From a bacterium (GTDB lineage Bacteria > Krumholzibacteriota > Krumholzibacteriia > G020349025): a DNA stretch of 64,000 nt. The notes under the pieces were generated by a model, which was not told the DNA's origin, ran no database searches, and was given only the letters and a program-made list of their open reading frames with translations. This document shows, one piece after another, positions 7,129-49,021 of this stretch. Within the stretch, counting starts at the first letter, position 1; every line of letters begins with the position of its first letter. Both the position numbers and the translations under genes were made by a program. The stretch covers positions 17,588-81,587 of the forward strand of contig JANLSU010000050.1 in NCBI GenBank assembly GCA_031362565.1. The letters run 5' to 3'.

Positions 7129-7271
7129 GGCGTCGACTCCACGAGGAGTATACCAGTGTCGAAGCACGCGGCAAACCATGAGCCGCCGGCCGATTCATCG
7201 ACCGCCAACAGAACGGCACGCTGGGCTATACTTCAGGTCGCGCTTTCTCATCTTTGGGGGGACATCTCGCC

Positions 7272-10200
7272 ATGGCGCCCAACCATCCGCACGGATCCCG
7301 ATCCCGATCCCGATCCCGATCCCGGTGGCCCGGCGGGCTAGCACTCGTCGCGTCCAGCGTCCTGAACACCGGACTCGTGTCGCCGGCCGCGGCGCGGCAG
7401 ATCGAAACGACCCTGCCCGCCAGAACGACCACGACCTCCGTCCCTGTCGGCTCTGATGTCGTAGGTTCCGCGGCTGCCGCCGCCGGCTCCGCCATCCTGG
7501 GTTCCGCCGCTGCCGCCGTCCGTTCGGGTGGCGGCCTCCTGGGTGGTTCCGAGGGCGCCCTCTATACATTCGTTGTGCCCGACGGTGAGGTCGCCACGGC
7601 AGTGCGGTCGCTCGATCCAGGCACGGCTGTCGAGCTCGTGGGGACTGCGACCTGGCGCGGCGCGGCGCTGGCGATCGTGCGCGCCACTGGCCGCGACGTC
7701 ACTGGCCCGGGCGCCACCGGCCCCGGCGCCGCGTTGGACGCCTTCGGGCAGCGCGTCGTGATCGAGACCGCCATGGCACCTGGTGCGCCTGCCCCTGGGA
7801 CTGGGGCCGCCGCCGGCGACGCCATCCGCCGCCTGCGCCCGGACCCCGCCGGCGAGCAGGCCGAGCGCGCCGAACTCCGAGCCCTCGTCGCCAACCCCGC
7901 GGACGTCGCGGTGTTTCACCCAGCGCTTCCACCGCGCGTTGCCAAAGCCACTCCGAGTCGATTCCGGCCGTCCAGCTACCCCGACCTCGAGGGCAGCCCG
8001 GTTCGCTATCTCATCGTGACCGACGCGGCGTTCGTCGCGGATTTCCAAACTCTTGCCGATTGGAAGACACGCCGTGGCTTTCCGGCGCAGGTGCGGACCC
8101 TCGACTGGGTCGTAGCGCACGCTCGGCACGGCAGCGACCTGGCTGAAACCATTCGGAATTTCTTGCAGGACGCATACGCACTTTGGGGCGTGGACTACGT
8201 GCTCTTGGGCGGCGATACCGACCGCATTCCAGCCCGCATCGCGACCTCCGGCGTCCCCGGCACGGCGACGCCTGTCCCGACGGATCTCTACTACGCCTGT
8301 CTCGACGGGACGTGGAACGCCAACCGCAACGGCATCTGGGCGGAGCCCGCGACCGGCGCCAACAACCTCGGCGACCAAGCGGATCTTTACGCCGAACTCT
8401 TCGTGGCGCGTGCCCCCGTGCACTCCGGCACCGAAGTGCAGAATTTCGTCCAGAAAACGATTCGCTACGAGACCCCCATCGACACCGCGTATCAAAATCA
8501 GATGCTGTTACTTGGCGAGGTCCTCTCGCCGGCCGACTACGACAGCCTGCAGTCCATCACTCTCGACGGCGCGGCGCTCTCGGAGCAGGTTCGCATCAAC
8601 AATGTGCCGGGAACCCAGGCCATCACGCGCCAATACGAAACGGCATTTCTCTATCCGGGCTCGACGAAAATCACCAAAGCCGCGTCTCTCGCCGCCATGA
8701 ATGCCGGCACGAACTTCGTCAATCACATCGGCCACGGATTCCGTTACAACATGTCGGTCGGCAACGCGAGCATCGTGAATGCCGACGCCGATGCGATGAC
8801 CAACGGCAACCGGACTTTTATTCTTTATTTGCTCAACTGCACTGCACTCGCATATGACAGCAATTCGCTGGGCGAACGCTTTTTGCTCGCACCCAGCGGC
8901 GGGGCAGCAGGCGTCATCGGCGCGAGCCGCGAGGCCTACCCGTCGACGTCGATCGCCTACAACCAAGCGTTCTACGATCAACTTTTCGCGCAGGGGAATA
9001 CGGCGCTCGCCACCGCGTTCTCGAACGCCCGGCTCGGACGCACTGTATTCACGTTCTTCGACACCCAAGACCGCTGGACGCATTTCATCGACAACGTGCT
9101 GGGGGATCCGGCCCTCACCGTCTACACGGGCCCGGCGCTGGCCCCGCAAGTGACGCATCCGGCGACGATCGCGCTCGGCACGACCAGCGTCGCGGTGCAC
9201 GTCGATGCAGCGTCCGTGCCGGTCGCCGGCGCGCTGGTTTGTCTCTGGAAGGGCGACGAGGCGTATGCGACCGGAACGACCGACGGTTCCGGCGATATCA
9301 CGCTCGACCTGCGCGCCGACACGCAGGGCAGCGTCCTCGTCACGGTGTCGCAGCGCAACCTCCGCACCTATCTCGGCACGATCGCCGTCGGCGCCTCCGC
9401 ACCGGCTCACCCGCGCATCGCGTCCGCGACAATCATCGACGACGGATCGAACGGTTCAGTCGGCAACGGTGACGGCGAGGCCGATGCCGGCGAGACGGTG
9501 GGCCTCGACGTCCACATCGCCAACGCCGGCGGCGCGTCGATCACGGCGCGCGCCCGGCTCGTGTCGGGGCTCCTGCAAGCGGTCGCGCTCCAGGATTCCG
9601 TCGAACTAGGCGTCCTCGCGCCGTCCGCGACGCCAACCGCGATCGCACACTTCCTCGTGCATCTCGACCCGGCAATCGCCGACCAGACCACCGTGCCGTT
9701 CACGGTGCAGTTCCGCGATCAATCGGCAACATCGTTCGGATCCGAAGCGCTGCCCAAGGTCATTCACGCCCCACGCCTCGAAGTCGTCGAGGTTTTGCCG
9801 GCCAGTGCGGCCGGTACCACGACATTCAATGTTGTCGTCAAGAACTTCGGCTCCGGTGCCGCAACGGCGCTCGCGGCAACGCTGACGAGCACGGACCCGG
9901 ATGTGTCGATTGGACAGGGCGCGGCCACCATCGCCGCCGCCGCGAGCTACGGAACCGGCTCGACATCGCCGGCGCTCGTCGTCACCGAAACCAACACCAC
10001 GCAGCGCAACCGGCTGCACCTGGCGCTGGTGGATGGCTTCGGGCGCAGCACGCCTTTCGACTTCGATCTGCGCGGTCCGGGAACAGCGTCGAAACCCGTC
10101 GCCGATGCGAGCCAGGGCCCGACCGTCATGCGCCTCACCTGGAGCACCTCCGCCGATGCGGATCTACTCGGTTATCACGTCTACCGGCGCCTGTCGGGGA

Positions 10201-11969
10201 TCGGCACGTTGGTGCGCGTCAGCACCGACGTCGTGCATCAATCCTATGTTCTGGACACGGGCCTCGCGCCCAGCACGCGCTACGATTGGGCGGTTGCGGC
10301 GGTCGACAGCAGCGGCTTGGTCGGCGCCTTGTCGCCGAGCGTCACGGCGAGCACCAATCCACCGCAGCTCGCGGGCTGGCCGCTGCTTCTGCCGGCTGCT
10401 ACATCCAGCAGTGTCGCGATCGGCGACATCGACGGCGATGGCAGCCGCGAGATCCTGGTGGGCGACGAAGGCGTCTACGCCTGGCATTCGAACGGCGTCG
10501 AAATGCAGGATGGTGACAACGATGCCAGCACCTGGGGCGCGCTGACGAATGACCCGGCAGTCGTCACCGGTTGCATCGCGCTCGGCGAATTCGATCCGGC
10601 GCGGCCGGGTCTCGAAATCCTGCGCGCCAATTGGGCCGACAGCCGTGTCACTGTCCTTGATGGCCAAGGCAACATTCTGCCGGGCTGGCCGCGCCAGCCC
10701 GCGAACGGTGCACCCGGCTACTGGGGCACGCCGACGGCCGCCGATCTGGACGGCGACGGACGCGCCGAGGCGCTCGTCGTCGGCAAGGACGGCCATTTGT
10801 ACGGCTGGCACTTCGATGGCACACCGCTCGCGGGTGTGGACGGCACGCTCGCCATCGTCGGTGGTTTCACGCGCACGTCGCCGACCGTCGCCAACTTGGA
10901 CGGCGATCCGCAGCTCGAAATCCTCGTCGCCGGCGCCGACGGTTTTCTGCGCGCTCTCAACCTGGACGGCTCCGTCGTCGTGACATCAGGGTCGGCATGG
11001 CCCGTGAATCTCGGCGGCCCGAGTCTGTCGTCACCGGCAGTCGCCGAGATCGACGGTAATCCGCGCACGACGGAAATCGTCGTGACGTCGGAAAACGATC
11101 GCGTGCACGTCATCAGCCATCGTGGCCTCGAACTCACCGGTTGGCCCAAGACGTTGGTCGAGGATTCGCCGAGTTTCGGCCCGTCGCCGGCGCTCGGTGA
11201 CCTGAACGGCGATGGCCGGGCGGAAGTCGTCGTCGTTTCGAATCGGAATCCGGCGTCGCTCAGCACTCTTGTCGTCTATGACGGCGCGACCAGCACGGTG
11301 CTGCTCACGAAGCTGCTCAACAATAGCTCCGAGTCGTCGCCCATTCTGGCCGACGTCGACGGCAACGGTTCGGTGGATGTCGTGGTTGGTGGCGAGAGCG
11401 GTGTCATCAATGCCTGGAACCTCGCGGGCCAGCAGTTAGACGGCTTCCCGCTGACCGTCAACGATTTCGTGCGCAGTACGCCCGCTTACGCCGACGTCGA
11501 TGGCGATGGCGGCGCCGATCTCGTCCTCGCGGGCTGGGACCGCAATCTCTATATCTGGGACTTGAGTGCGCCGTATGTCGCGGCCCGCGCGCCGTGGCCG
11601 ACGTTCTGCCGGGACGCGTCGCGCACCGGCAATGCCCTCGAGAAGCTGCCGACCGACAGCGGCGGCGGCGCCGTGCCGGCCGCCAACCCGCCGCGCTTCC
11701 GGGTGCTGCCCAACGTACCGAATCCGTTCAATCCAAGCACCGAGTTGCGGTTCGAGCTGCCCATCGCCGGCGACACGGGCGTACGGATTTTCGATGCGCA
11801 GGGGCGCTTGGTGCGGACCCTCGTCCATGCAGTGCTTGCCGCCGGCGCGCACACCGTCGAGTGGAACGGCCGCGACGATGCGGGCCACACGCTGGCAAGC
11901 GGCATCTACTGGTCGCGCGTCGAATTCGCCGGCCAAGTGCGCATGCGCAAGCTGACGCTGCTCAAGTAA
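7272..11969 (+). CDS. Exported C25 (gingipain-family) cysteine peptidase with Ig/FN3 domains, FG-GAP repeats and a C-terminal FlgD-Ig (T9SS-like) domain
   Basis: YLIVT..F..LADWK, YVLLGGD, TDLYY, catalytic-type HIGHG and LLNC, LGDP; FN3 (LTW...GYHVYR..L.PSTRY); several D-x-DGDG repeats; C-terminal NVPNPFNPST...WNGRD..G..LASGIY..KLTLLK. Confidence 0.88.
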   Translation: MAPNHPHGSRSRSRSRSRWPGGLALVASSVLNTGLVSPAAARQIETTLPARTTTTSVPVGSDVVGSAAAAAGSAILGSAAAAVRSGGGLLGGSEGALYTFVVPDGEVATAVRSLDPGTAVELVGTATWRGAALAIVRATGRDVTGPGATGPGAALDAFGQRVVIETAMAPGAPAPGTGAAAGDAIRRLRPDPAGEQAERAELRALVANPADVAVFHPALPPRVAKATPSRFRPSSYPDLEGSPVRYLIVTDAAFVADFQTLADWKTRRGFPAQVRTLDWVVAHARHGSDLAETIRNFLQDAYALWGVDYVLLGGDTDRIPARIATSGVPGTATPVPTDLYYACLDGTWNANRNGIWAEPATGANNLGDQADLYAELFVARAPVHSGTEVQNFVQKTIRYETPIDTAYQNQMLLLGEVLSPADYDSLQSITLDGAALSEQVRINNVPGTQAITRQYETAFLYPGSTKITKAASLAAMNAGTNFVNHIGHGFRYNMSVGNASIVNADADAMTNGNRTFILYLLNCTALAYDSNSLGERFLLAPSGGAAGVIGASREAYPSTSIAYNQAFYDQLFAQGNTALATAFSNARLGRTVFTFFDTQDRWTHFIDNVLGDPALTVYTGPALAPQVTHPATIALGTTSVAVHVDAASVPVAGALVCLWKGDEAYATGTTDGSGDITLDLRADTQGSVLVTVSQRNLRTYLGTIAVGASAPAHPRIASATIIDDGSNGSVGNGDGEADAGETVGLDVHIANAGGASITARARLVSGLLQAVALQDSVELGVLAPSATPTAIAHFLVHLDPAIADQTTVPFTVQFRDQSATSFGSEALPKVIHAPRLEVVEVLPASAAGTTTFNVVVKNFGSGAATALAATLTSTDPDVSIGQGAATIAAAASYGTGSTSPALVVTETNTTQRNRLHLALVDGFGRSTPFDFDLRGPGTASKPVADASQGPTVMRLTWSTSADADLLGYHVYRRLSGIGTLVRVSTDVVHQSYVLDTGLAPSTRYDWAVAAVDSSGLVGALSPSVTASTNPPQLAGWPLLLPAATSSSVAIGDIDGDGSREILVGDEGVYAWHSNGVEMQDGDNDASTWGALTNDPAVVTGCIALGEFDPARPGLEILRANWADSRVTVLDGQGNILPGWPRQPANGAPGYWGTPTAADLDGDGRAEALVVGKDGHLYGWHFDGTPLAGVDGTLAIVGGFTRTSPTVANLDGDPQLEILVAGADGFLRALNLDGSVVVTSGSAWPVNLGGPSLSSPAVAEIDGNPRTTEIVVTSENDRVHVISHRGLELTGWPKTLVEDSPSFGPSPALGDLNGDGRAEVVVVSNRNPASLSTLVVYDGATSTVLLTKLLNNSSESSPILADVDGNGSVDVVVGGESGVINAWNLAGQQLDGFPLTVNDFVRSTPAYADVDGDGGADLVLAGWDRNLYIWDLSAPYVAARAPWPTFCRDASRTGNALEKLPTDSGGGAVPAANPPRFRVLPNVPNPFNPSTELRFELPIAGDTGVRIFDAQGRLVRTLVHAVLAAGAHTVEWNGRDDAGHTLASGIYWSRVEFAGQVRMRKLTLLK
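7294..7323 (+). repeat. (GATCCC)5 hexanucleotide tandem repeat in the peptidase N-terminus
   Basis: Five perfect GATCCC copies encoding a Ser-Arg run. Confidence 0.9.
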
Positions 11970-12622: not shown

Positions 12623-14032
12623 CTAACTGCGGATCGCGGCGGCGCCGGAGCGTTCGCCGTACAGGCGGCGCAAGTCGGCAGCCGTTTGCCGGCCGTCGTG
12701 CTTGCGAACTGCCAAGGCGCGGAGGCGCTCGCCGAGTTCGGGCCGCAGCCGCACGATGCGCCCGAGCTTTTCTTCAATTTCACGGACCGCCGGTGCGTCG
12801 GCGCGCAACACGCACAGCGACGCGATCTCGGCCGAGATCTCGCTCGCGATCGTGCTGACCACCTGGGCTGCGGGGGTGGCTTCGCGCACGAGCGGCAGCA
12901 CGCCGCCCGCCAACGCCTCGAGCGCCACGTGCGCCGACCGGCGCGGGTCGATGCCAGGCAGCACGGCGACGTCGGCCAGCGCCAGGAGCGCCGCGAATTC
13001 ACTGCGTTCAACTTCGCCCGCGAAGCGCACCCGCCGCTCCGGCTCGAGGCGCGCGGCGTTCGCCCACCAGGCGTCGGCGCGTCCCTGAGCGTGCAGCAGA
13101 TCGAGGTGATCGGCGAGCGGCTGGTACATCTCGTTCGTTTGCAGGATGGCGTACAGCGCCTCGGGATTCCGGGCCGCGAGCGCCGCGCGCAGGCTGTCGA
13201 TGGCCGGCGACGGCGGCCCGAGCTGCGCGACGATGGCGATCAGGCCGGGCTGGGTCCGCAGCAATTCCGGCAGGGCGAACAGCAGATGCTCGAAGCCATC
13301 CGTTTCGCCTTCGTGTTGCACGCACAACACCACGCAGGCCCGCTCCCAATCGATGCCATCCAACCGCGACGCGAGTTCGGGTTTGCGGGCAAGACGTAAG
13401 GCGGCGTTCCGGCGCTCTGGGCGTGGGAGGGGCTTAAAAAACTCCAAGTCCACACCACGGTGGAGCATGCGCGGCCGTAGGGGGGACTCGCCGGCGCGCC
13501 CCGGAAACGCCGCCTCCATCGAGCGGCGCATGTCCTCGTCGAACAACACGATGTGGCGGGCGTCGCGCAGCACGGCGCGGCCGCGCTCGGAGACCTCGCG
13601 CCGGTCGATGAGATCGGTCCAGCGCGGCGTCACGCAGTAAGGAGTTCCGGTGCGCTCGTGCACGAGCCGCACCACGCGTCCGGCGATGCCCAGTCCGACG
13701 GCGTGCAGGACGTCGAGGCCTTCGGTCTGCAACACGGCGCAGACTTGGCTGGCGAGCAGGTCGAGACATTCGTCGGTAGGTTCGCGGTCGATCCAGGCGG
13801 CGGGCGCCGGATCGGCGGCAGCTGCCGCGCTATTGCGGTAGACCCACGTTTCAGCATGACGAATGGAATGCGTGATGCGCGGTGCCGGAGCAGGAACGAC
13901 CTCGATGCGATGTGTCTGGAAGCCCTCGCTCGCGAGACCGCGTGCGACGTCGTCGACGAGAGCATGCGCGCCCGGGCTGCGGACGCGCCCTTCGAGCACG
14001 AAGCCGACCATCTTCACCACCACCCGTCCCAA
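12623..14032 (-). CDS. Glycosyltransferase family 4-like protein
   Basis: LDVLHA, GVDLEFFKP, VRFAG, ADVAVLP, ALEALAGG motifs of GT-B fold; start uncertain. Confidence 0.75.
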   Translation of the reverse strand: MGRVVVKMVGFVLEGRVRSPGAHALVDDVARGLASEGFQTHRIEVVPAPAPRITHSIRHAETWVYRNSAAAAADPAPAAWIDREPTDECLDLLASQVCAVLQTEGLDVLHAVGLGIAGRVVRLVHERTGTPYCVTPRWTDLIDRREVSERGRAVLRDARHIVLFDEDMRRSMEAAFPGRAGESPLRPRMLHRGVDLEFFKPLPRPERRNAALRLARKPELASRLDGIDWERACVVLCVQHEGETDGFEHLLFALPELLRTQPGLIAIVAQLGPPSPAIDSLRAALAARNPEALYAILQTNEMYQPLADHLDLLHAQGRADAWWANAARLEPERRVRFAGEVERSEFAALLALADVAVLPGIDPRRSAHVALEALAGGVLPLVREATPAAQVVSTIASEISAEIASLCVLRADAPAVREIEEKLGRIVRLRPELGERLRALAVRKHDGRQTAADLRRLYGERSGAAAIRS

Positions 14033-14135: not shown

Positions 14136-15692
14136 TCAGAAACGACTGACAAGCAGGGCGCTGACTCCTTCAAACTCCAAGACTCGATAGCAAGTACCGG
14201 CCGTGCACGCGAGGCCGCCGCGCCGCCGTCCCCAGAAGAGCGACAAGCTGTGGCGATCGCGGCTCAAACTCGCTTGCAGGGAATCGAACGCGCGCCGTGC
14301 GACGTGTCCGGTGACCGGATCCGTGGCTTCACCCGGATCATTGGTGGTCTGGCGGACGACGCCGATCGAGAAATGTTCGGCCCACGCATAGGTGAGAGAT
14401 GCATAGCGGTCCTCGATGTCGACCGATTGGCGCGACGTGCGGCGCGTCGCCGACTGGCGCTCCAATTCGGCTTCGATGCTGTGCACGCCGGCGAACGGCA
14501 TTTGCGTGAAGCCGCCGAACGTATCGCGGTCATGCGTGCTGTCGAAGTCGTCCGCGCCGCGGCCACCAAAGAGCGCCGCCGTACGGCCCCGCCAGTGGGT
14601 GGCGAGTTCGGCGTAGCGTTCGTGAAACCGCCGCGACCGGGCATTCTCGGCGCGGCTCCAATTGAGTGTCAGTTCCGCCCAGCCGCGGTAATCAACGCGC
14701 GTTTCGAACTGATACCCCTGTTCTTGCTGCGGCTCGACGACGTGGGTGACACGGTTCAAGAGGGCATACGAATGCTCGCGGACCAGCGGCGGCGGTTCGT
14801 TCGCGAAGAGCTGCAGCCCTTGGTAGTCTTTGTATTCGTAGGTCGCGCCCCATCGGAGTCCCGGCAACGGTTCATCGAGAGTCGCGGACTGCGACACGTA
14901 CACGCCGTAGCCGCGCCCTTGGCTGGTGCGCGGGCTGGGGCGAGCGAAATGTCCCGACACGTGGGCGTACTCGCCATACGTATCAAGTGTCAAACGCGAC
15001 CAGCCGGCGCGCTCGAGCCACGGGTCGGCGGTGAACTGCACGAAGCCGCCGCCGCCTTCGTGGGGCGCGCCGTCGATGCCATCGATACGCACGTAGTTGG
15101 CGCCGGCCCGCGTGCCGCGCACGATCTCGGCGCTCGCCGTCGCGCCGGCCACGTCGAGGACGCGCGGTTGGTCGGGCGGCAGAGCCTCGACACGCGGCTT
15201 GCCTTGCACGACCTCGACATTCCAGCGGGCGCCGCCCGTCCGCAGGCGCAGGCCATCGAGATCGCGCGAATCGGCGTATTGCGCCAATCCAATCTCTTCG
15301 CGAATCACCCCTGGGAGTTCAAAGGCACGCAGCAGCAGGCCGCGCCCGAAGAGGGTTTCGTAGTTGCCGACCGTAATCTCGAGGCCGTCGGCGGCCCAGG
15401 TGGCGTAGCGCCGCGAGAACTCCCGCAGTTGGAGAGTGCGCGGCTCGGAGACGTCATAGAACTCATACCGGAAACCGAGCCGCAACGCGGCGTGCGACCA
15501 GTCGAGCGTGAAAGCGTCGAAGGTCGAATAGCCCGTCGACGGTAGTCCGGGGTTCGGCGGTTGGAACGGCAGGTTGCCAGGCGGCTTGCCGGAGCGAATG
15601 AGGGCGATATTCGAAGCACTGATCTGCGCCTCCGCACCCGCCGCGAAGCAAGCGAGAGCGCCGACGATAGCAAAAATATGCGGCTTGTTCAC
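14136..15692 (-). CDS. DUF6029-like outer-membrane beta-barrel protein
   Basis: Signal peptide; GNYETLFGRGLLLR; alternating beta-strands; C-terminal GGLACTAGTCY..FEG..RF ending in Phe. Start overlaps the upstream stop (GTGA). Confidence 0.7.
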   Translation of the reverse strand: MNKPHIFAIVGALACFAAGAEAQISASNIALIRSGKPPGNLPFQPPNPGLPSTGYSTFDAFTLDWSHAALRLGFRYEFYDVSEPRTLQLREFSRRYATWAADGLEITVGNYETLFGRGLLLRAFELPGVIREEIGLAQYADSRDLDGLRLRTGGARWNVEVVQGKPRVEALPPDQPRVLDVAGATASAEIVRGTRAGANYVRIDGIDGAPHEGGGGFVQFTADPWLERAGWSRLTLDTYGEYAHVSGHFARPSPRTSQGRGYGVYVSQSATLDEPLPGLRWGATYEYKDYQGLQLFANEPPPLVREHSYALLNRVTHVVEPQQEQGYQFETRVDYRGWAELTLNWSRAENARSRRFHERYAELATHWRGRTAALFGGRGADDFDSTHDRDTFGGFTQMPFAGVHSIEAELERQSATRRTSRQSVDIEDRYASLTYAWAEHFSIGVVRQTTNDPGEATDPVTGHVARRAFDSLQASLSRDRHSLSLFWGRRRGGLACTAGTCYRVLEFEGVSALLVSRF

Positions 15693-16240
15693 TGCTTCGG
15701 GGCCTTGTCCAGCAACGCCTCGGTTGCCTTGCGGAGGGCATCGATTTCGCCGGGCCGGTAGCCGAACGTCGTGCGCACGACCGTACCGTCCTTATCGAGG
15801 AGCAGCGTCGTCGGCAACGCCGGAATCTGCAACTGGCTCTGCGCCGCGCGGTTCAAATCGAGGACGATGGGAAAGTCGATGCCGTGGCTCTTGGCAAACG
15901 GTTTCACCTTCGGCGCGTTGCGCGGTCCGTCCTCGTTCACACCGACGATCTGCAAGCCGCGCGGCGCCAGGTCGGCATACAACTGCTGGAGTTCCGGCAA
16001 GGCGCTGATGCACGGCTTGCACCAGGTCGCCCAGAAATCCAGGATGACCGGTCCCTTGCCGAGATACGACGCCAGTTCGACGCTACGCCCTTCGAGGTCT
16101 TGGAGCCGCAGGCCGGCGAGTGAGATTTTTTGCGCCGGCGCTTCCTGTCCAGCAGCCGGGCCAGCCAGAACTGCCGCGAGCAGGCAGGTGAGTGCCGCGG
16201 TTTGGGCGCGAGCGATGCGGCCACGCCGGTGCATTCTCAT
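15689..16240 (-). CDS. TlpA/ResA-family thiol-disulfide oxidoreductase, exported
   Basis: Signal peptide; LDFWATWCKPC; LPTTLLLDKDG. ATG overlaps the upstream TGA (ATGA, 16237-16240). Confidence 0.9.
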   Translation of the reverse strand: MRMHRRGRIARAQTAALTCLLAAVLAGPAAGQEAPAQKISLAGLRLQDLEGRSVELASYLGKGPVILDFWATWCKPCISALPELQQLYADLAPRGLQIVGVNEDGPRNAPKVKPFAKSHGIDFPIVLDLNRAAQSQLQIPALPTTLLLDKDGTVVRTTFGYRPGEIDALRKATEALLDKAPKQ

Positions 16241-16785
16241 CGATACAATCCCTTCACGGTCGACCATGTTGGTGTCGCAACCGGCGTCGGCAGGTTCGCG
16301 ACGATGGCTGCCCGCACGTGCGCCTCGTTGAAGGCGAAGTCCAAGTCCGACTGGTAGCGCACGATGCCCTGCGGGTCGATGACGAAGTAGTTGTCACGGA
16401 TCTGATTGTAATACGCTGGGCCCACGAGATATCCACCCAGACGCAGGAACGGGAACGTGATGCCGGTGCGATCGACGAAGCTTTGGGCACCGGAGGCCGA
16501 GCCCTGCCACACGTCCACCGCCAAGGTTTGAAATCCAGGCCCCGCCTTATAGTCCTGCCAGACTTGCTCCACGACCGGACCGGCCGTGCGACACTCGCCT
16601 CAATTCCACCCAAACAGCGCCAGCAGCACGACCTTGCCGCGGAGCGCGCTGAGCGTCCAGCTCTGACCGTTGGTGTCGGTGAGCGTGAAATCAGGCGCCG
16701 GGTCGCCGACCTGGAGCGCGGCGGCCGGCGATCCGAGCGCGCCACAGAGGGCGGCGGATGCGACAAGGAGGCGCAAGGAACGCAT
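16237..16785 (-). CDS. Exported AhpC/TlpA-like redoxin, predicted selenoprotein (UxxC; UGA at 16600-16602)
   Basis: ORFs 16600..16785 and 16237..16572 are in one frame and join as ...VGDPAPDFTL..RGKVVLLALFGWN-TGA-GEC-RTAGP...FVIDPQGIVRY; the TGA occupies the first Cys of CxxC and a SECIS-like hairpin follows. Confidence 0.82.
16570..16588 (-). promoter_or_regulatory. Putative bacterial SECIS hairpin
   Basis: mRNA CACGGCC-GGUCC-GGUCGUG (7-bp stem with one G-U pair, GGU at the loop) starts exactly 11 nt after the UGA. Confidence 0.7.
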
Positions 16786-16921
16786 GGTCTTCTCCTCGGC
16801 ACTGGAACGAACCCCACGAGTCTACAGGACCAACACTACACCCAACCAGGCCAGGCGCCCGGGTATTCCGGGGCTGGGCTGGGGTGGGGCGGGGCGAAGG
16901 CGGCCCAAGGTTCGCGGGCGT

Positions 16922-17761
16922 TCAGACCAGCGCCGCACTCACGCGGCGCTCCCGATCGGCGACGTGCGCCGCGATGAGCGCCAGGGCGTCGTGCGTGCCG
17001 GCGTCGATCGCCACCCACTCGGCGCCTTGCGCGCGGGCGTCGGCCCCGAGCGCCAGCCCGAGCCCGGCGTCGAGACCGGAGTGCACCAGGACGAGCAGTG
17101 CCGGGTGCTCGGCGCGCAGTCCGCCGCGCACCACCTCGGGGGTCACATCGGACCCCAGGTCCACCACGCGCCAACCGCGTTCGGCGAGCGTCACGTGGAC
17201 GAGGATCGCGGTGACCGCGTCGGCGGTGCCGGGTGCCGCTGCCAGAAGCGCGGTCGCGGCTGCAACGCGAGTCGCCGCCGTTTGGTCGAGCAACGAACGC
17301 AACGTCGTGACGGCGCATTGCTCCGCCCGACGGCGCTTGAAGGCGTCGAAGTCGGGCGCCAGCGCCGTCGCAACGAGTTCGTGCCAGGCCCGCGCCACGA
17401 GGGCCGCGGATTCCGCCAAGCGCAGCCCATGACGGTGCAGGTCGAGGGCAATGCCGCGCGCCGTGGCGGTGTCACCGTTCCCCAAGGCGGTCGCGATGTG
17501 GGCGGCGAGAGCAGCGTGGTTCCCCTGCAGGAGCAGCAGTGCGAGTTCATCGATCTGAGCCGCGGGCCGCACTTCGGTGTCGACGATCGACAGCCCGAGT
17601 TTGCGGCCGGCCTCGGCGACATCCTGCACGCGGTACTTGCGATGCCCGCCCGGCGTGCGCACGCAGCGCAAGAGCCCGGCGTCGGTCCAACGTTTGACAG
17701 TGGAAATGCTGACCCCGCAGACGCGGGCTAAATCGGCGGTCGAATAGAATCGATCCCTCAT
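16922..17761 (-). CDS. MerR/excisionase-type HTH regulator with a degenerate B12-binding-like domain (CarH/LitR-like architecture)
   Basis: YSTADLARVCGVSISTVKRWTDAG.L...RTPGGHRKY; C-terminal L..RGW.VVDLG.DV.P Rossmann-like segment. Confidence 0.75.
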   Translation of the reverse strand: MRDRFYSTADLARVCGVSISTVKRWTDAGLLRCVRTPGGHRKYRVQDVAEAGRKLGLSIVDTEVRPAAQIDELALLLLQGNHAALAAHIATALGNGDTATARGIALDLHRHGLRLAESAALVARAWHELVATALAPDFDAFKRRRAEQCAVTTLRSLLDQTAATRVAAATALLAAAPGTADAVTAILVHVTLAERGWRVVDLGSDVTPEVVRGGLRAEHPALLVLVHSGLDAGLGLALGADARAQGAEWVAIDAGTHDALALIAAHVADRERRVSAALV

Positions 17762-17913
17762 CCCTACCCATCCTCCCTGGCGCCGGTGCCGCCGACAGCG
17801 GATTCGAACGATCCGGTCGGTATGGGCTCCTTTGCGTTCGACTAGGCGCAGAGTAGCCGCATGGAGTCCAGGCGCGCAAGCGCCGGTTTCGCCGACCAAG
17901 GGCGGAAACGAGC

Positions 17914-17937
17914 GCGGCCCCGGAGTTCCGGGGCCGC
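17914..17937 (-). terminator. Hairpin terminator downstream of the cyclophilin gene
   Basis: GCGGCCCCGGA-GT-TCCGGGGCCGC inverted repeat. Confidence 0.6.
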
Positions 17938-17966
17938 ACCGCACGTCCAAGCTGCGCCTTGGTGGG

Positions 17967-18581
17967 TCACTCGACGAGGATGGCCTTCTTGATCACGATC
18001 GGCACGAGCGGCTGGCCCTCGGAGATCTGTGTCGCCGCGACCTTGACGGCTTTGATCTTCTCGACGACATCGGTGCCGCCGACGACTTTCCCGAACACGC
18101 AGTAGCCGACGCCGTCGGAATACTTCGCCTTGTCCAAGAAGCCATTCTTGGCCGTGACGTTGATGAAAAATTGGTCGGTGGCGCTATTCGGTGCATTCGT
18201 GCGCGCCATGGCGACGGTATAGAGCTCGTTGGACAGGCCGTTCGTCGATTCGTTGACGATCGGTGGCAGGCCCGGCTTCTCCTTGTAATTCACATCGAGC
18301 CCACCGCCCTGAATCATGAAGTTGGACATGACGCGGTGGAATACGGTGCCATCGTAGTGGCCGTTCTTCACGTAGGCCAGGAAGTTGGCGACGGTCTTCG
18401 GAGCTTCCTTCTTATAGAGCTCGATCGTGATGTCGCCGAGTGTGGTCGTCATCTTCACGACCGGGTTGGTCGCATCCTTCACTTTCTGGACCGCCTCGGG
18501 GACTGCCGCAGTTGCGGCGTGAGTGGCGCCCAGCACGAGGATCGTGCTGGCAAGGGCGAACGCCCGACGAACCGATTGCAT
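17967..18581 (-). CDS. Cyclophilin-type peptidyl-prolyl cis-trans isomerase, exported
   Basis: APKTVANFL.Y, YDGTVFHRV..FMIQGGG, VAMART, QFFIN, GYCVFGKV; signal peptide; GGAGG RBS. Confidence 0.95.
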   Translation of the reverse strand: MQSVRRAFALASTILVLGATHAATAAVPEAVQKVKDATNPVVKMTTTLGDITIELYKKEAPKTVANFLAYVKNGHYDGTVFHRVMSNFMIQGGGLDVNYKEKPGLPPIVNESTNGLSNELYTVAMARTNAPNSATDQFFINVTAKNGFLDKAKYSDGVGYCVFGKVVGGTDVVEKIKAVKVAATQISEGQPLVPIVIKKAILVE

Positions 18582-18780
18582 GCGAACCTCCGGCAGCAAG
18601 GCTTGGAACGGCAGGCCCTGGAATCGGGCCGCGAATTTTCGGCGCGGGAGACTACCACGCGCCGCACGAACCGCGACCCCCTTCGACACCACGGCCCGGC
18701 GCCAGGTTCCAAGGTGGCGGTTGCCGCCGCCCGGCGCGCCGTTCCGAGGCACGACCGGCCGCTGCCGGGAGCAAAGCAAA

Positions 18781-18875: not shown

Positions 18876-20168
18876 TCAGAACGACACAGTGCCCTGCGCG
18901 TAGAACCAGTACGAGTTGTCGGCCTTCGTCGAGCCCACCGGCGCCGGGACGGCGTCACCGGGCATGAACGCGCTCACGCCCACGGTCGGCATGAAGCGTT
19001 CGCGATAGGCCCACGTGCCGTGCACGTCGACTTCGTTGCCGAGGGCGTTGCTGGCCGTTCCGGCCTCCGCCAAACGGAAGTTGTGGAACTCGCCACCCAC
19101 GGCGAACGAGTTGTACTCGTTGCTCCACACCGTCGCCTTGGCGTTGACCTTGATATCCTGCAAGCCGCCCGATGCGACGCTCGAGCTGCTCGCCGGTTGC
19201 ACCACGTCCATGAGGCCATAGAACGTGTGGTTGTCGCCGAACAGCGTGTTGAACGCCTTCTGCTTGTTGTCGGTGCCGTTGTCGTCGCCCGACAGCAGGT
19301 CCACGCCGGCGCCGAAGCGCACCGGACGTGCCTCGTTGCCCAACGTCACGCCGACCTCGCCGCCCACCATATAGGCGCCGATGTCGTTCTGAGTCGACGG
19401 ACCGGTGTCCTGCGAACCCATCTGGTACGCGCCTTCGACGCTGTAGTCGAACTGCGTCGCGGCCTTGCCATGGACGCGGCCACCCAGCGTGAAGGTGTCC
19501 ATGTTGTCGTCCGGGGTCACGGCGCCCTTGTCGCGCTCGTTGATCGCGTAGACGTCGACATTGGCGTTGTCGTTGACGCCGAACGTCCCGAACCCAGCCT
19601 GCATCGTCGCGTCGGTCTTGTTCTGGAAGTCCGGCGAGCCGATGGACGGCGTGTCGTTCTCGGCCAAGTTCGCCCACAGCAACTGGCCGTTGAAACGGCC
19701 ATGGTTCACGGTCGCCATCGCGCCGTCGAACGACGTGGAGACGTTGTTCCACGCGTCCGGCGCGATCAAGCGCTCGTTGCCGAAGCTGACTTCCATGCGG
19801 CCGGCCTTGATGCCGAAGCCCTGCCACCCCAGGTTGTTCACCTGGAAGAAGCCCTGATGCAGATCGAGGTTACCGTTCTCCTGCACGCCCGGCGTCGTCG
19901 ACGACGGCACCTGGCCCTGCACGCGTGAGTCCTGCACCTGCACGAACACACTCATGTCGGCCGCTGGATGCACATTGATCCCGATGCGCGTCCGCATCAG
20001 GCTGAAGCTCTTCATGTCGGTATTGCTGTTGAAGTCACGATTGTCGTTTTCATTGCGCACCCGAAGCTCGCCGTTGATTTCGAACGGTGTCGCCGTCGGG
20101 TCCGCAACTGCGGCGCCGGCACACGCCAGAACCGCGACGGAAGTCACCAGCATCGACTTGAACTTCAC
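18876..20168 (-). CDS. Alginate-export (AlgE-like) family outer-membrane beta-barrel protein
   Basis: Signal peptide; GELRVR.E, RTR.G, VQ.QDSR, LDLHQ, GRME..FGNERL....W, SGD, F..LFG..H.FYG.MD, LG.EVD; terminal Phe. Confidence 0.8.
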   Translation of the reverse strand: MKFKSMLVTSVAVLACAGAAVADPTATPFEINGELRVRNENDNRDFNSNTDMKSFSLMRTRIGINVHPAADMSVFVQVQDSRVQGQVPSSTTPGVQENGNLDLHQGFFQVNNLGWQGFGIKAGRMEVSFGNERLIAPDAWNNVSTSFDGAMATVNHGRFNGQLLWANLAENDTPSIGSPDFQNKTDATMQAGFGTFGVNDNANVDVYAINERDKGAVTPDDNMDTFTLGGRVHGKAATQFDYSVEGAYQMGSQDTGPSTQNDIGAYMVGGEVGVTLGNEARPVRFGAGVDLLSGDDNGTDNKQKAFNTLFGDNHTFYGLMDVVQPASSSSVASGGLQDIKVNAKATVWSNEYNSFAVGGEFHNFRLAEAGTASNALGNEVDVHGTWAYRERFMPTVGVSAFMPGDAVPAPVGSTKADNSYWFYAQGTVSF

Positions 20169-21020
20169 TGCATTGCCTTTCGGTGAGGTACGACTTCGGC
20201 GGCAACCTGCGCGTCGAAGTGGACCGGTCGGCGCTCCCTTGACCATCGCTCGCGCCCGACGCGATCTTTTGCAAGCGGCACCCAAGGGCCGCTCGCAGTT
20301 CACCGAGGCGCGCCCGCGGCGCTGCCTCGAGAATCCACCGTCACGGAGCCATCGCCCTCACCCCCTCCGCCTCTCGCCACCCCTGGCGACGGTGCGTCGC
20401 CGCATGCGGCACGAACCGTTCGAAGCGGAGCGCATGAAAGCAGTGCGATCGATGAGTGCGCAAACGGATCTGCGCGGCGGAGTGCATTCGGGGCACTCGA
20501 CTCTGTCTCGACCGCTTCGCCAGACGGCTCCAGAGCCCGCTTGACGACCTGGGTGCTGGCTGGTTCTTGTCCGGGGCTCGGCAGCAGGTCACCCTGCTTC
20601 ACGGACGACGGGGTCGCGAATTCAAGTTCCGCGCACCCTGAACCGCAGCTCGATCAGGGTGGGGAAATGCAAGCGCACGTCCAACGTCGCGTGTGGAACC
20701 GGCGCCGGCTTTGGATGTCGTTGCAGCTTCGACAGCCGCGGCGCCGCGCGGTGCGTGAGGCTGGCGTGTCTGGCCGGTGCAGGCGCGGTACAGCCCGGCC
20801 CGGATGCGGGTGTTAATTTGCCGGACCCCGGCCGACGTTTCACGGCGCCGCGCCGCGCGCCGCATCTCCAGATGCGGTTCCGGCGGAGCAAAGGTGGCGC
20901 GCTGCAGCCTCGGCGGGAGAGGACGCAACTGACCACGGATGGGCCGCACATCATCGTTCGATCGAGATGCATGAAAAATATCCGCCGGGCACTGTCGGGA
21001 AGGGCCTGGACGCCGAAACG

Positions 21021-47247: not shown

Positions 47248-47961
47248 ATGAAAAAAACACTGATCGTCACGGCGGCGGCACTCTGCCTTGCAAACGCCGC
47301 ATCCGCCCAGTTTGTCAACAATGGCACGATCGGCATCTACAATGATGCTGCCGGTACGTCGTGCTGTATCCCGCTCGCGTCCGGGCAGGCGAACGCCCAC
47401 GTCATCATGACGCTCGCCGGCGCTTCGGCAGCCGGTGGTGCCGGTTTCAACGGCGGTTTCACGGGCGCCGAATTCCGAATCGAAGAGAGTGCGCCGACCG
47501 GCTACTTCTTCATTTGGGCCGCCAATTCCGCGTTGTTCAGCGTCGTCGTCGGTAGCCCGCTCGACGAAACGCCGGCCGTTCCGGATGACGCGCGCGGCAC
47601 CAACATGGCCTCCGCCGCGTGCCAGCCGAGCGACCACGCCGGCATCGTCGGCGACAAGGTCGAACTCGGAACGATTCAGATTCTTGCCTTCGGCCCTGTG
47701 CCGCCGTGCGACTTGATCGTCAAGCGCAAGAGCCCCCCCGGCAACGCGCAGCTGGCGGACTGCCCGCTGGTGACGCTCTGCGATATCCCGACCTTCACCA
47801 AGGTTTGCTTGTCGGTGCAGCCGTCGGCGCTGCCCGGTGGTTCAGCTGAACCGCAGCACTTCGTCGCGAAGGTCAACGCGCCCGGATGCCTCGGCTCGGC
47901 GTGTGGTTTTGTCGGCGTCGAGCAGCAGACGTGGACGGGCGTCAAGGCGCTCTTCCGTTGA
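47248..47961 (+). CDS. Exported Cys-rich hypothetical protein with C-terminal TW-x2-VK-x-LF motif
   Basis: Signal peptide (ASA), AAGGAG RBS; paralog of 48395..49021. Confidence 0.8.
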   Translation: MKKTLIVTAAALCLANAASAQFVNNGTIGIYNDAAGTSCCIPLASGQANAHVIMTLAGASAAGGAGFNGGFTGAEFRIEESAPTGYFFIWAANSALFSVVVGSPLDETPAVPDDARGTNMASAACQPSDHAGIVGDKVELGTIQILAFGPVPPCDLIVKRKSPPGNAQLADCPLVTLCDIPTFTKVCLSVQPSALPGGSAEPQHFVAKVNAPGCLGSACGFVGVEQQTWTGVKALFR

Positions 47962-48112: not shown

Positions 48113-48394
48113 TCGCATTTCTAGGCGATTTTTTTCAGATTACCGCGTGCCGCTGTCCGGACACCCCACCTCGGGCTCCCCATGAAGGCCAGTTCGGGCG
48201 CCGCGCTCCGCAGGGGCGAGTGGCGCATGTCCTGCATCTCTCTTCTCGTTGCGCTCCGCGCTTCGCTCGCTCGGAACACCGCCGAGCCGGCCGGGGAACT
48301 CCGCCAAGGGTTCCGACGCGGTGCGACGGGCGGGGTTGCGGCGCAGGGTTGCGCCGGACCTTGGTGCGTGGAGCTTCCAGGCAAGGAGAGTTCG

Positions 48395-49021
48395 ATGAAG
48401 ACGAATCGGCTAGTGACGCTTGCTTTCGCGACCCTGGTGACCGGAGCCTCGGCAGCTCACGCGGTTTCCAATGGCTCGATCGCCGTGTACTTGGATGCGG
48501 CCGGTACCCAATGCCAGGGACCGATCTCCGGTACCGTCATCGGTTCGGTCTGGATGAACCTGGGTGGCGCGACGTCATCGGGCATCACCGGTACCGAATT
48601 CCGGATCGATAATTCCAATTCGAACGCCTACAGCGTCAGCTTCTCCGCTGATCCTGGCGTCACGATCTCGCTTGGCAACGCGTTCCTCGGCGGTTGCAAT
48701 CTGGCGTTCGCCGCCTGTCAGACGGGTACCTCGGGACGCGTCAAGTTGGGCAGCCTCTTCATCATCGAGCTGGCGTCGAGCCAGGACGTGCTCTTGACGG
48801 TGCGGCCGCATTTCACGCCGTCGAATCCGAGCCCCGAACTGGCGTGCGCACTCGCCAACGGCTGTGATGTGCCGTTCTACACGCAGATCTGCGTCAGCGC
48901 GGTGGACAGCGACCACTGGCGCGCGGTCATCAATCCGACCGGCGCGATCGCCGGCGATTGCCAGCCGGTGGCCGTGGCGCCGGCGAGCTGGACCGCCGTG
49001 AAGGCGTTGTATCAGAACTGA
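48395..49021 (+). CDS. Exported Cys-rich hypothetical protein with C-terminal SW-x2-VK-x-LY motif
   Basis: Signal peptide (AHA), AAGGAG RBS; paralog of 47248..47961. Confidence 0.8.
   Translation: MKTNRLVTLAFATLVTGASAAHAVSNGSIAVYLDAAGTQCQGPISGTVIGSVWMNLGGATSSGITGTEFRIDNSNSNAYSVSFSADPGVTISLGNAFLGGCNLAFAACQTGTSGRVKLGSLFIIELASSQDVLLTVRPHFTPSNPSPELACALANGCDVPFYTQICVSAVDSDHWRAVINPTGAIAGDCQPVAVAPASWTAVKALYQN

Follow-up and report, generated by a model that had tools for sequence, protein, structure and literature searches.

The window, a stretch of 64,000 nucleotides from a bacterium of the phylum Krumholzibacteriota, carries on its minus strand a redoxin gene in which an in-frame UGA is almost certainly read as selenocysteine (Sec) with the help of a downstream hairpin. 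In the preferred reading, the product is an exported selenoprotein (Sec insertion, then export through the inner membrane) with a functional link to the TlpA-like protein and the DUF6029 barrel encoded next to it, whatever the geometry of a relay between them. We estimate the probability of this reading at roughly 0.6. At a minimum, the data define a phylum-wide selenoprotein family, with a strong match in 65 of 201 genomes, that databases represent only by fragments or rare Cys forms. An earlier note had described the split gene, its hairpin, its signal peptide and its overlap with the next gene, leaving the strand unstated. All of these features are present and the redoxin reading is upheld, but the TlpA and DUF6029 partners and the C-terminal tail had been overlooked. 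The features are collected in Table 1.

Table 1. Features of the redoxin gene and its neighbours (window coordinates)
Feature	Position	Strand	Basis or remark
Exported UxxC redoxin gene, 182 aa, Sec = residue 62	16237..16785	-	TlpA/ResA-like thioredoxin fold
RBS GAGGAG	16792..16797	-	sequence; 6 nt before redoxin ATG
Predicted Sec/SPI signal peptide, residues 1-23, ends A-A-A	16717..16785	-	inspection by eye; equivalent homolog N-termini
In-frame UGA, selenocysteine U62 of U-G-E-C (almost certain)	16600..16602	-	family TGA/Cys counts; selA/B/C/D in genome
Candidate bSECIS hairpin at +12 to +30 from the UGA, with loop G at +19/+20	16570..16588	-	structure, family constraint
Asp131, column of cis-Pro (TlpA/ResA) or Arg (peroxiredoxins)	16393..16395	-	alignment
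C-terminal tail, 17 residues, P-V-x-x-x-T-W-S-x-V-K-x-L-Y-R, candidate sorting signal	16240..16290	-	genome pattern count
Cys-TlpA with signal peptide, W-C-K-P-C and retained cis-Pro, without the tail	15689..16240	-	start overlaps redoxin stop (ATGA)
DUF6029 outer-membrane beta-barrel	14136..15692	-	Pfam PF19494; start overlaps TlpA stop (GTGA)
C-x-x-G-x-C pair, last barrel loop	14190..14207	-	both Cys invariant, 73/73 aligned sequences
MerR-HTH / CarH-like regulator, directly upstream of redoxin	16922..17950	-	same position in G002, G003

Predicted selenocysteine recoding

The upstream open reading frame starts at ATG 16785, runs for 61 codons and ends in FGWN, directly before TGA 16602-16600. 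Past this codon, 120 codons are free of stops in the same frame, up to TGA 16239-16237; the listed frame of 111 residues begins at a GTG ten codons past the first TGA. The 61- and 111-residue frames are thus parted only by the TGA, as the earlier note had claimed, and both lie on the minus strand. With TGA read as U, they join to a protein of 182 residues with the motif FGWN-U-GEC-RTAGP and the active site U62-G-E-C65. Its overlap with the start of the following gene, ATGA, is seen directly in the sequence. A single contig spans the site; it is identical over the whole stretch and has TGA, but it is possibly the source of the assembly and therefore not independent. In public collections, the window gene is represented only by the 111-residue fragment after the UGA, and two close relatives by fragments of 111-117 residues.

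The source genome (G000; 5.4 Mb in 133 contigs, completeness 100, contamination 1.85) contains selA, selB and selD above cut-offs and a tRNA-Sec (selC), and hence the whole machinery that the recoding calls for. The selD gene, whose identity was confirmed by HMM, carries an in-frame TGA of its own. Candidate sites for selenoproteins, SelD among them, lie at C6:975(+), C51:64523(+), C131:119976(+), C18:12733(-), C39:6828(+), C115:12967(+) and C100:10333(-). By their motifs, we take the further candidates to be deiodinase-like, arsenite-methyltransferase-like, YHS-like, SelW-like (two) and thioredoxin-like (one). A scan of the genome contigs with a generic pattern returned distant redoxins only.

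When the 201 phylum genomes were searched with a profile, 69 had a match at E 1e-22. A limit of E 1e-27 leaves 78 matches in 65 genomes, 76 with an in-frame TGA and two with none. Among the 74 of these 78 family genes that were inspected, the column of the catalytic Cys is TGA in 72, TGC in one and TGT in one; where a stop codon occupies it, this is always TGA and never TAA or TAG. The alternation of Cys and TGA foreseen in the earlier note is therefore found among the homologs. The genomes with the Cys forms, G002 and G003, still retain selA. Synteny with the window is complete at the G003 locus and, at the G002 locus, holds up to the end of the contig. A quick IQ-TREE run places the two Cys forms in one clade nested within the Sec forms, so that they look like a single reversion, one event within the phylum. 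Elsewhere, Cys forms are common, judging by the many CxxC rows among the best 150 protein representatives (67 on proteins with the C-terminal domain, CTD, discussed below, and three on short-tail proteins). One CTD-bearing family member, P0008, has Trp at the Sec column in its record, probably because the gene caller read TGA as Trp. Another member (L179, G183:C164:651-1118) is of the UxxU type, with the motif U-W-R-U and two in-frame TGA codons. Several family genes are tandem duplicates. The Atlas cluster closest to the Cys ortholog consists mostly of Krumholzibacteriota. Arrays of redoxin-like frames, most with one in-frame TGA, were also seen at G010:C1:108959-115350 and G015:C3:83692-89476 (family f5).

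All 24 non-overlapping close pairs have a pN lower than pS on either side of the TGA, one of them only marginally. This purifying selection on both halves, a check named in the earlier note, speaks against a pseudogene, which was rejected. Recoding of TGA as Trp was rejected as well, since TGA serves as the stop of ordinary genes in this genome and homologs have Cys at the column.

In the minimal E. coli fdhF stem-loop, the structure starts about 11 nt past the UGA and has GGU at the loop. The hairpin that the earlier note had drawn behind an 11-nt spacer, CACGGCC-GGUCC-GGUCGUG, is recovered at 16588-16570 in both the MFE and the centroid structures. It has a stem of 7-8 bp, a loop GGUCC or GUC at 18-19 nt after the UGA, and an energy of -12.6 kcal/mol. 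In a hand check it satisfies the bSECIS consensus as given in the available text of PMC13188914 (a loop of 3-9 nt, a stem of 4-16 bp, a spacing of 16-37 nt, a G within the first two loop positions, and an MFE of -7.5 or lower). By itself the hairpin is unremarkable: its stability does not exceed that of shuffled sequences (z of -0.28, +0.37, -1.82, -0.37 and -1.60 in five windows), and its difference from synonymous recodings is not significant (z -0.65). The support for a SECIS element therefore comes from family-wide constraint.

Two registers are found in the family, with the purine-G of the loop at about +19, as in the window gene, or at about +25. At codon 9 after the UGA, Gly is encoded by GGT in 30 and by GGG in six of 36 cases and never by GGC, which accounts for 446 of the 739 Gly codons elsewhere in the family genes; Ser at the same codon is AGT in 13 of 24 cases, compared to 24 of 339 elsewhere; and 62 of 72 family regions fold better than their synonymous recodings (mean z -1.0, against -0.13, -0.13, +0.17 and -0.28 in four control windows), although none of these codon and folding figures is a p-value, because kin are not independent. 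The Gly codon of the loop is lost in both Cys orthologs. A SECIS filter passes 47 of 72 family sites, 194 of 3999 random TGA codons, 38 of 1040 probable stops and neither of the two Cys forms, but it was devised after inspection of the family and misses the SelD UGA of this genome, and is therefore supporting only. We regard it as almost certain that SelB would recognise the hairpin past the UGA and insert Sec, which would create the active site U62-x-x-C65.

Fold and C-terminal tail

A single Pfam AhpC-TSA domain crosses the TGA (residues 26-144, E 8.8e-15). With UxxC in place, the protein scores 55.2 bits against PF00578 (gathering threshold 26) and 45.5 against PF08534 (26.6). The structure model has a pLDDT of 85 and matches the folds of ResA and DsbE (Z about 20, rmsd 1.8 over 136-137 residues). 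In TlpA, ResA and CcmG, a cis-Pro that faces the active site has a defining role. At its column, none of the 74 family members has Pro; 55 have D, 11 have H and four have E. The placement as TlpA/AhpC in the earlier note is thus partly retained: the TlpA/ResA fold and the first position of UxxC stand, but membership in canonical TlpA or AhpC does not, in view of the Asp at the cis-Pro column. A peroxiredoxin of the AhpC/BCP type was rejected because the motif is U-x-x-C rather than PxxxTxxC/U and the catalytic Arg column is Asp. A lipoprotein was rejected for want of a lipobox, and Cys14 is not conserved. None of the NCBIfam models reaches its cut-off on the redoxin: the best selenoprotein model, NF041054 (WAxxUGC_long), scores 31.6 bits against a cut-off of 300, NF040737 (PrxU) 13.4 against 270 and the ResA model 59.7 against 170, and NF045500 (GOS_C) has no match at E 0.05. 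Sequence and model together indicate that the redoxin would work as a thioredoxin-fold oxidoreductase, outside both the canonical TlpA proteins and the peroxiredoxins.

The signal peptide, already predicted for the joined gene in the earlier note, agrees with the equivalent N-termini of homologs, and would very probably carry the protein through the inner membrane. The notion of a Sec-containing extracytoplasmic redoxin is thus supported by the machinery, the alternation of TGA and Cys, the selection on both halves and the fold.

The C-terminal ends differ within the family. By pattern, 54 of the 74 members end in a CTD of the FlgD-Ig/type IX secretion (T9SS) type, some of them partial, 16 have a short T/S-W-x-x-V-K-x-L-Y-R tail, and four are unclassified, two of which resemble tail variants. 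On the quick IQ-TREE tree, CTD and tail require five changes, at least two of them forced by well-supported branches. Genome G184 has one CTD redoxin and one tail redoxin in tandem, and by motif the source genome has both forms, the tail on the window gene and the CTD on a paralog on contig C11.

A search of the 50,604 open frames of the source genome for the tail pattern gave 75 C-terminal and five internal matches; a CTD-like ending is found in 93 frames. Of the 75 tail proteins, 69 pass a crude, uncontrolled filter for signal peptides, and 22 share a domain with a CTD protein. Several known extracellular domains are present in 21 other tail proteins that were scanned; no NCBIfam or Pfam model covers the tail in these or in the window gene. 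The tail was modelled as a helix, without a beta-sandwich. According to the accessible part of PMC11285876, described T9SS export CTDs are folded beta-sandwich domains of 70-100 residues, and the window gene is without the domain of this kind that would be expected of a T9SS type A cargo.

The T9SS translocon and shuttle are represented in the source genome by SprA (G000:C38:44174-48457; SprA was found in all 61 phylum genomes searched), seven PorV-family genes above cut-off, and a PorU-like C25 peptidase. Models for GldM and GldN gave no match in the source genome and were silent on the controls too; the motor of this T9SS is possibly divergent or missing. A large C25 peptidase of the kind just named (PorU/gingipain-like) is encoded in the window itself at 7254-11969 (+); it has FG-GAP repeats and bears a FlgD-Ig CTD. 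Two small frames with signal-like N-termini and the same short tail, at 47248-47958 (+) and 48182-49018 (+), have no noteworthy Pfam or NCBIfam family. We lean towards the view that the tail, placed where relatives have the T9SS CTD, sorts the redoxin to or across the outer membrane. As one domain carries either the CTD or the tail, and both occur in one genome, the tail is directly testable, and the redoxin family offers a clean natural swap experiment for the two endings.

Partner genes and possible function

The three genes of the trio are translationally coupled, by an ATGA and then a GTGA overlap. A family redoxin lies within 2.5 kb of 25 of the 31 close-clade DUF6029 genes in the phylum, and a family redoxin is present somewhere in all 30 genomes with a close-clade barrel. 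Conversely, only 26 of the 78 family redoxins adjoin such a barrel and 52 do not, so that most copies act without an adjacent trio; in three of the five family-f1 genomes with a barrel, the barrel is apart from the redoxin matches. In the best 80 of 181 metagenome loci with DUF6029, which were found with Cys-containing patterns and not de-duplicated, TlpA is upstream of DUF6029 in 51 of 58 with enough flank, a family redoxin is near in 23 of 31 with enough flank, and the redoxin has the Sec form in 33 of the 38 loci that bear one; the trio in these loci spans 35-75% GC, in Sec and Cys forms.

Further observations concern the neighbourhood. A second trio in the source genome (G000:C11:61169-64171, L201:3169-6172) consists of a U-P-F-C redoxin with a FlgD-Ig/T9SS-type CTD, TlpA and DUF6029. 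Many phylum genomes have a second, more distant clade of DUF6029 paralogs (E about 1e-45 to 1e-67, e.g. G053:C13:37869-39305). At one locus (L169, G139:C15:86340-87844), a break in the DUF6029 gene and an overlong redoxin frame suggest frameshifts or assembly errors. Following the barrel in the window, and also in G003, is a GT4 glycosyltransferase gene (12623-14032, minus strand). Upstream of the redoxin are genes for a cyclophilin (17967-18779, minus strand) and an alginate-export-type barrel (18876-20303, minus strand), and it is possible that the MerR-HTH/CarH-like gene regulates the redoxin. PF19494 was not found in five named genomes from outside the phylum, where controls were silent too; in Bacteroidota, the DUF6029 neighbourhood is presumably linked to Omp28.

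The DUF6029 ortholog of G003 was modelled with a pLDDT of 94.9 as a large all-beta barrel. The PDB entries that match it best, ushers and TonB receptors, reach a TM score of 0.52 or less, and there is no close solved relative. In the model, the Cys pair sits on a short hairpin that separates the final two long strands; by the usual topology of outer membrane proteins, this hairpin would be extracellular. The pair can be a plain structural disulfide. Predictions of a complex between the Cys redoxin of G003 and its barrel scored 0.54, 0.01 and 0.56, and one control scored 0.37; these values speak neither for nor against the pairing.

From the computed recoding context, fold, conservation and gene order, we infer export, surface sorting and a partnership within the trio. 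Electrons from DsbD, a domain present in the source genome, would pass to the periplasmic Cys-TlpA, which would hand them on to the Cys pair of the last barrel loop. This pair would reduce the selenenyl-sulfide of the surface redoxin, whose own substrates would be oxidised thiols, or disulfides outside the cell or on its surface. The whole chain from DsbD through TlpA and the barrel to the surface redoxin is our leading mechanism, but a tentative one. More doubtful is the general statement that the trio constitutes a thiol/selenol relay across the outer membrane, as a counterpart of DsbD, and that about 75 proteins of this cell share a 17-residue sorting signal for which the T9SS CTD can be exchanged. 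Should the fuller reading be true, Gram-negative bacteria would have a selenoenzyme that is secreted or located at the surface, DUF6029 would receive its first function, and surface thiols could be kept reduced without haem.

The exported selenoprotein could instead be a free-standing antioxidant or disulfide reductase of the envelope, recycled by TlpA/DsbD or by small thiols, with the barrel merely co-regulated. The many family genes away from a close-clade barrel, several of them in tandem duplicates, would fit this model, as would the presumed role of the common UxxC Prx-like and redoxin selenoproteins as general thiol oxidoreductases (PMC2398784, PMC13188914, in the parts available). Nevertheless, we consider it unlikely, in view of the translational coupling of the three window genes, the persistence of the trio in metagenome loci of widely different GC content with both Sec and Cys forms, and the presence of the redoxin in every genome with a close-clade barrel.

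It is rather improbable that the barrel is a transporter of a thiol, a selenium compound, a metal or the redoxin itself, with the redoxins conditioning the substrate or gating a Cys-locked loop and no electrons crossing the membrane. The cis-Pro of thioredoxin folds blocks metal binding, and its loss could allow U and C to bind metal. The barrel is large and looks plugless, its nearest solved folds are those of ushers and TonB receptors, and the GT4 gene follows it in both the window and G003. In the literature, DUF6029 was met in one work, whose available text tentatively suggests polysaccharide export (PMC9603273). Cargo and shuttle of the T9SS are encoded by adjacent genes (PMC12618676), and HBP35, a T9SS thioredoxin, binds haem (PMC2907840), both according to the accessible portions. 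Against the transporter stands that neither a substrate nor a TonB box or transport gene was identified, and that a pure shuttle could do without a dedicated TlpA and without an invariant pair of Cys residues.

Finally, a true stop, by nonsense mutation, assembly error or as the end of the first of two separate small genes, might be suspected from the fragments in public collections and the insignificant hairpin, but is very improbable given the exclusive use of TGA in 72 of 74 genes, the selection on both halves, the full Sec machinery and the single Pfam domain across the codon.

Relation to known systems

The open literature that was searched yielded no paper that joins selenoprotein and selenocysteine with type IX secretion, and no mention of the window redoxin family, the trio or the tail; in the available text of PMC13188914, neither 'T9SS' nor 'secret' occurs. 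The exported form, the trio with TlpA and DUF6029 and the swappable tail were thus not found in print, and the function is proposed here from sequence.

The recoding itself is ordinary in kind, because UxxC redoxins are a catalogued class of bacterial selenoproteins, with PF00578 and PF08534 members described in the available text of PMC13188914 and PMC2398784. The redoxin is a new subfamily of this known class. It shares the Pfam domains and the UxxC motif with the Prx-like (PF00578, UxxC/UxxU) and redoxin (PF08534, UxxC) selenoproteins, and, to the extent that Table 1 of PMC13188914 and the entries Prx-like 1 and 3 of PMC2398784 tell, also the 3'-adjacent bSECIS, the Cys homologs and, in L179, the UxxU variant. 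In contrast to them, the window family has the distinct motifs G-Y-x-U-x-x-C, D-x-W-D/N-G and Y-D, and adds a C-terminal export module and the TlpA/DUF6029 context.

With TlpA, ResA and CcmG, which are fed by DsbD or CcdA, the redoxin shares the fold, the export signal and C/UxxC. It differs from them by Sec, by G-W/Y-x-U in place of W-A-x-W-C, by Asp in place of cis-Pro and by the C-terminal tail, whereas the neighbouring Cys-TlpA is a canonical member of this group.

Like HBP35 of Porphyromonas gingivalis and other thioredoxins secreted by the T9SS (PMC2907840; PMC13404670, as far as available), the family combines a thioredoxin motif with a C-terminal module that would bring the protein to the surface. 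HBP35 has Cys and an extra domain, the window redoxin has Sec, a short tail and no CTD; the Muribaculaceae protein in the accessible text of PMC13404670 is likewise a T9SS thioredoxin with Cys. The tail occupies the same position as the T9SS type A CTD (TIGR04183 / PF18962 / FlgD-Ig PF13860) of the CTD-bearing family members, but it has 17 residues, is predicted to be helical, lacks a beta-sandwich and matches no model.

Finally, the proposed relay resembles the porin-cytochrome (Mtr) system of Shewanella, in that both would pass reducing power via an outer-membrane barrel to extracellular disulfides. As described in the available portion of PMC10986466, Mtr uses multihaem cytochromes, whereas the trio would operate by thiol/selenol exchange, with no haem proteins.
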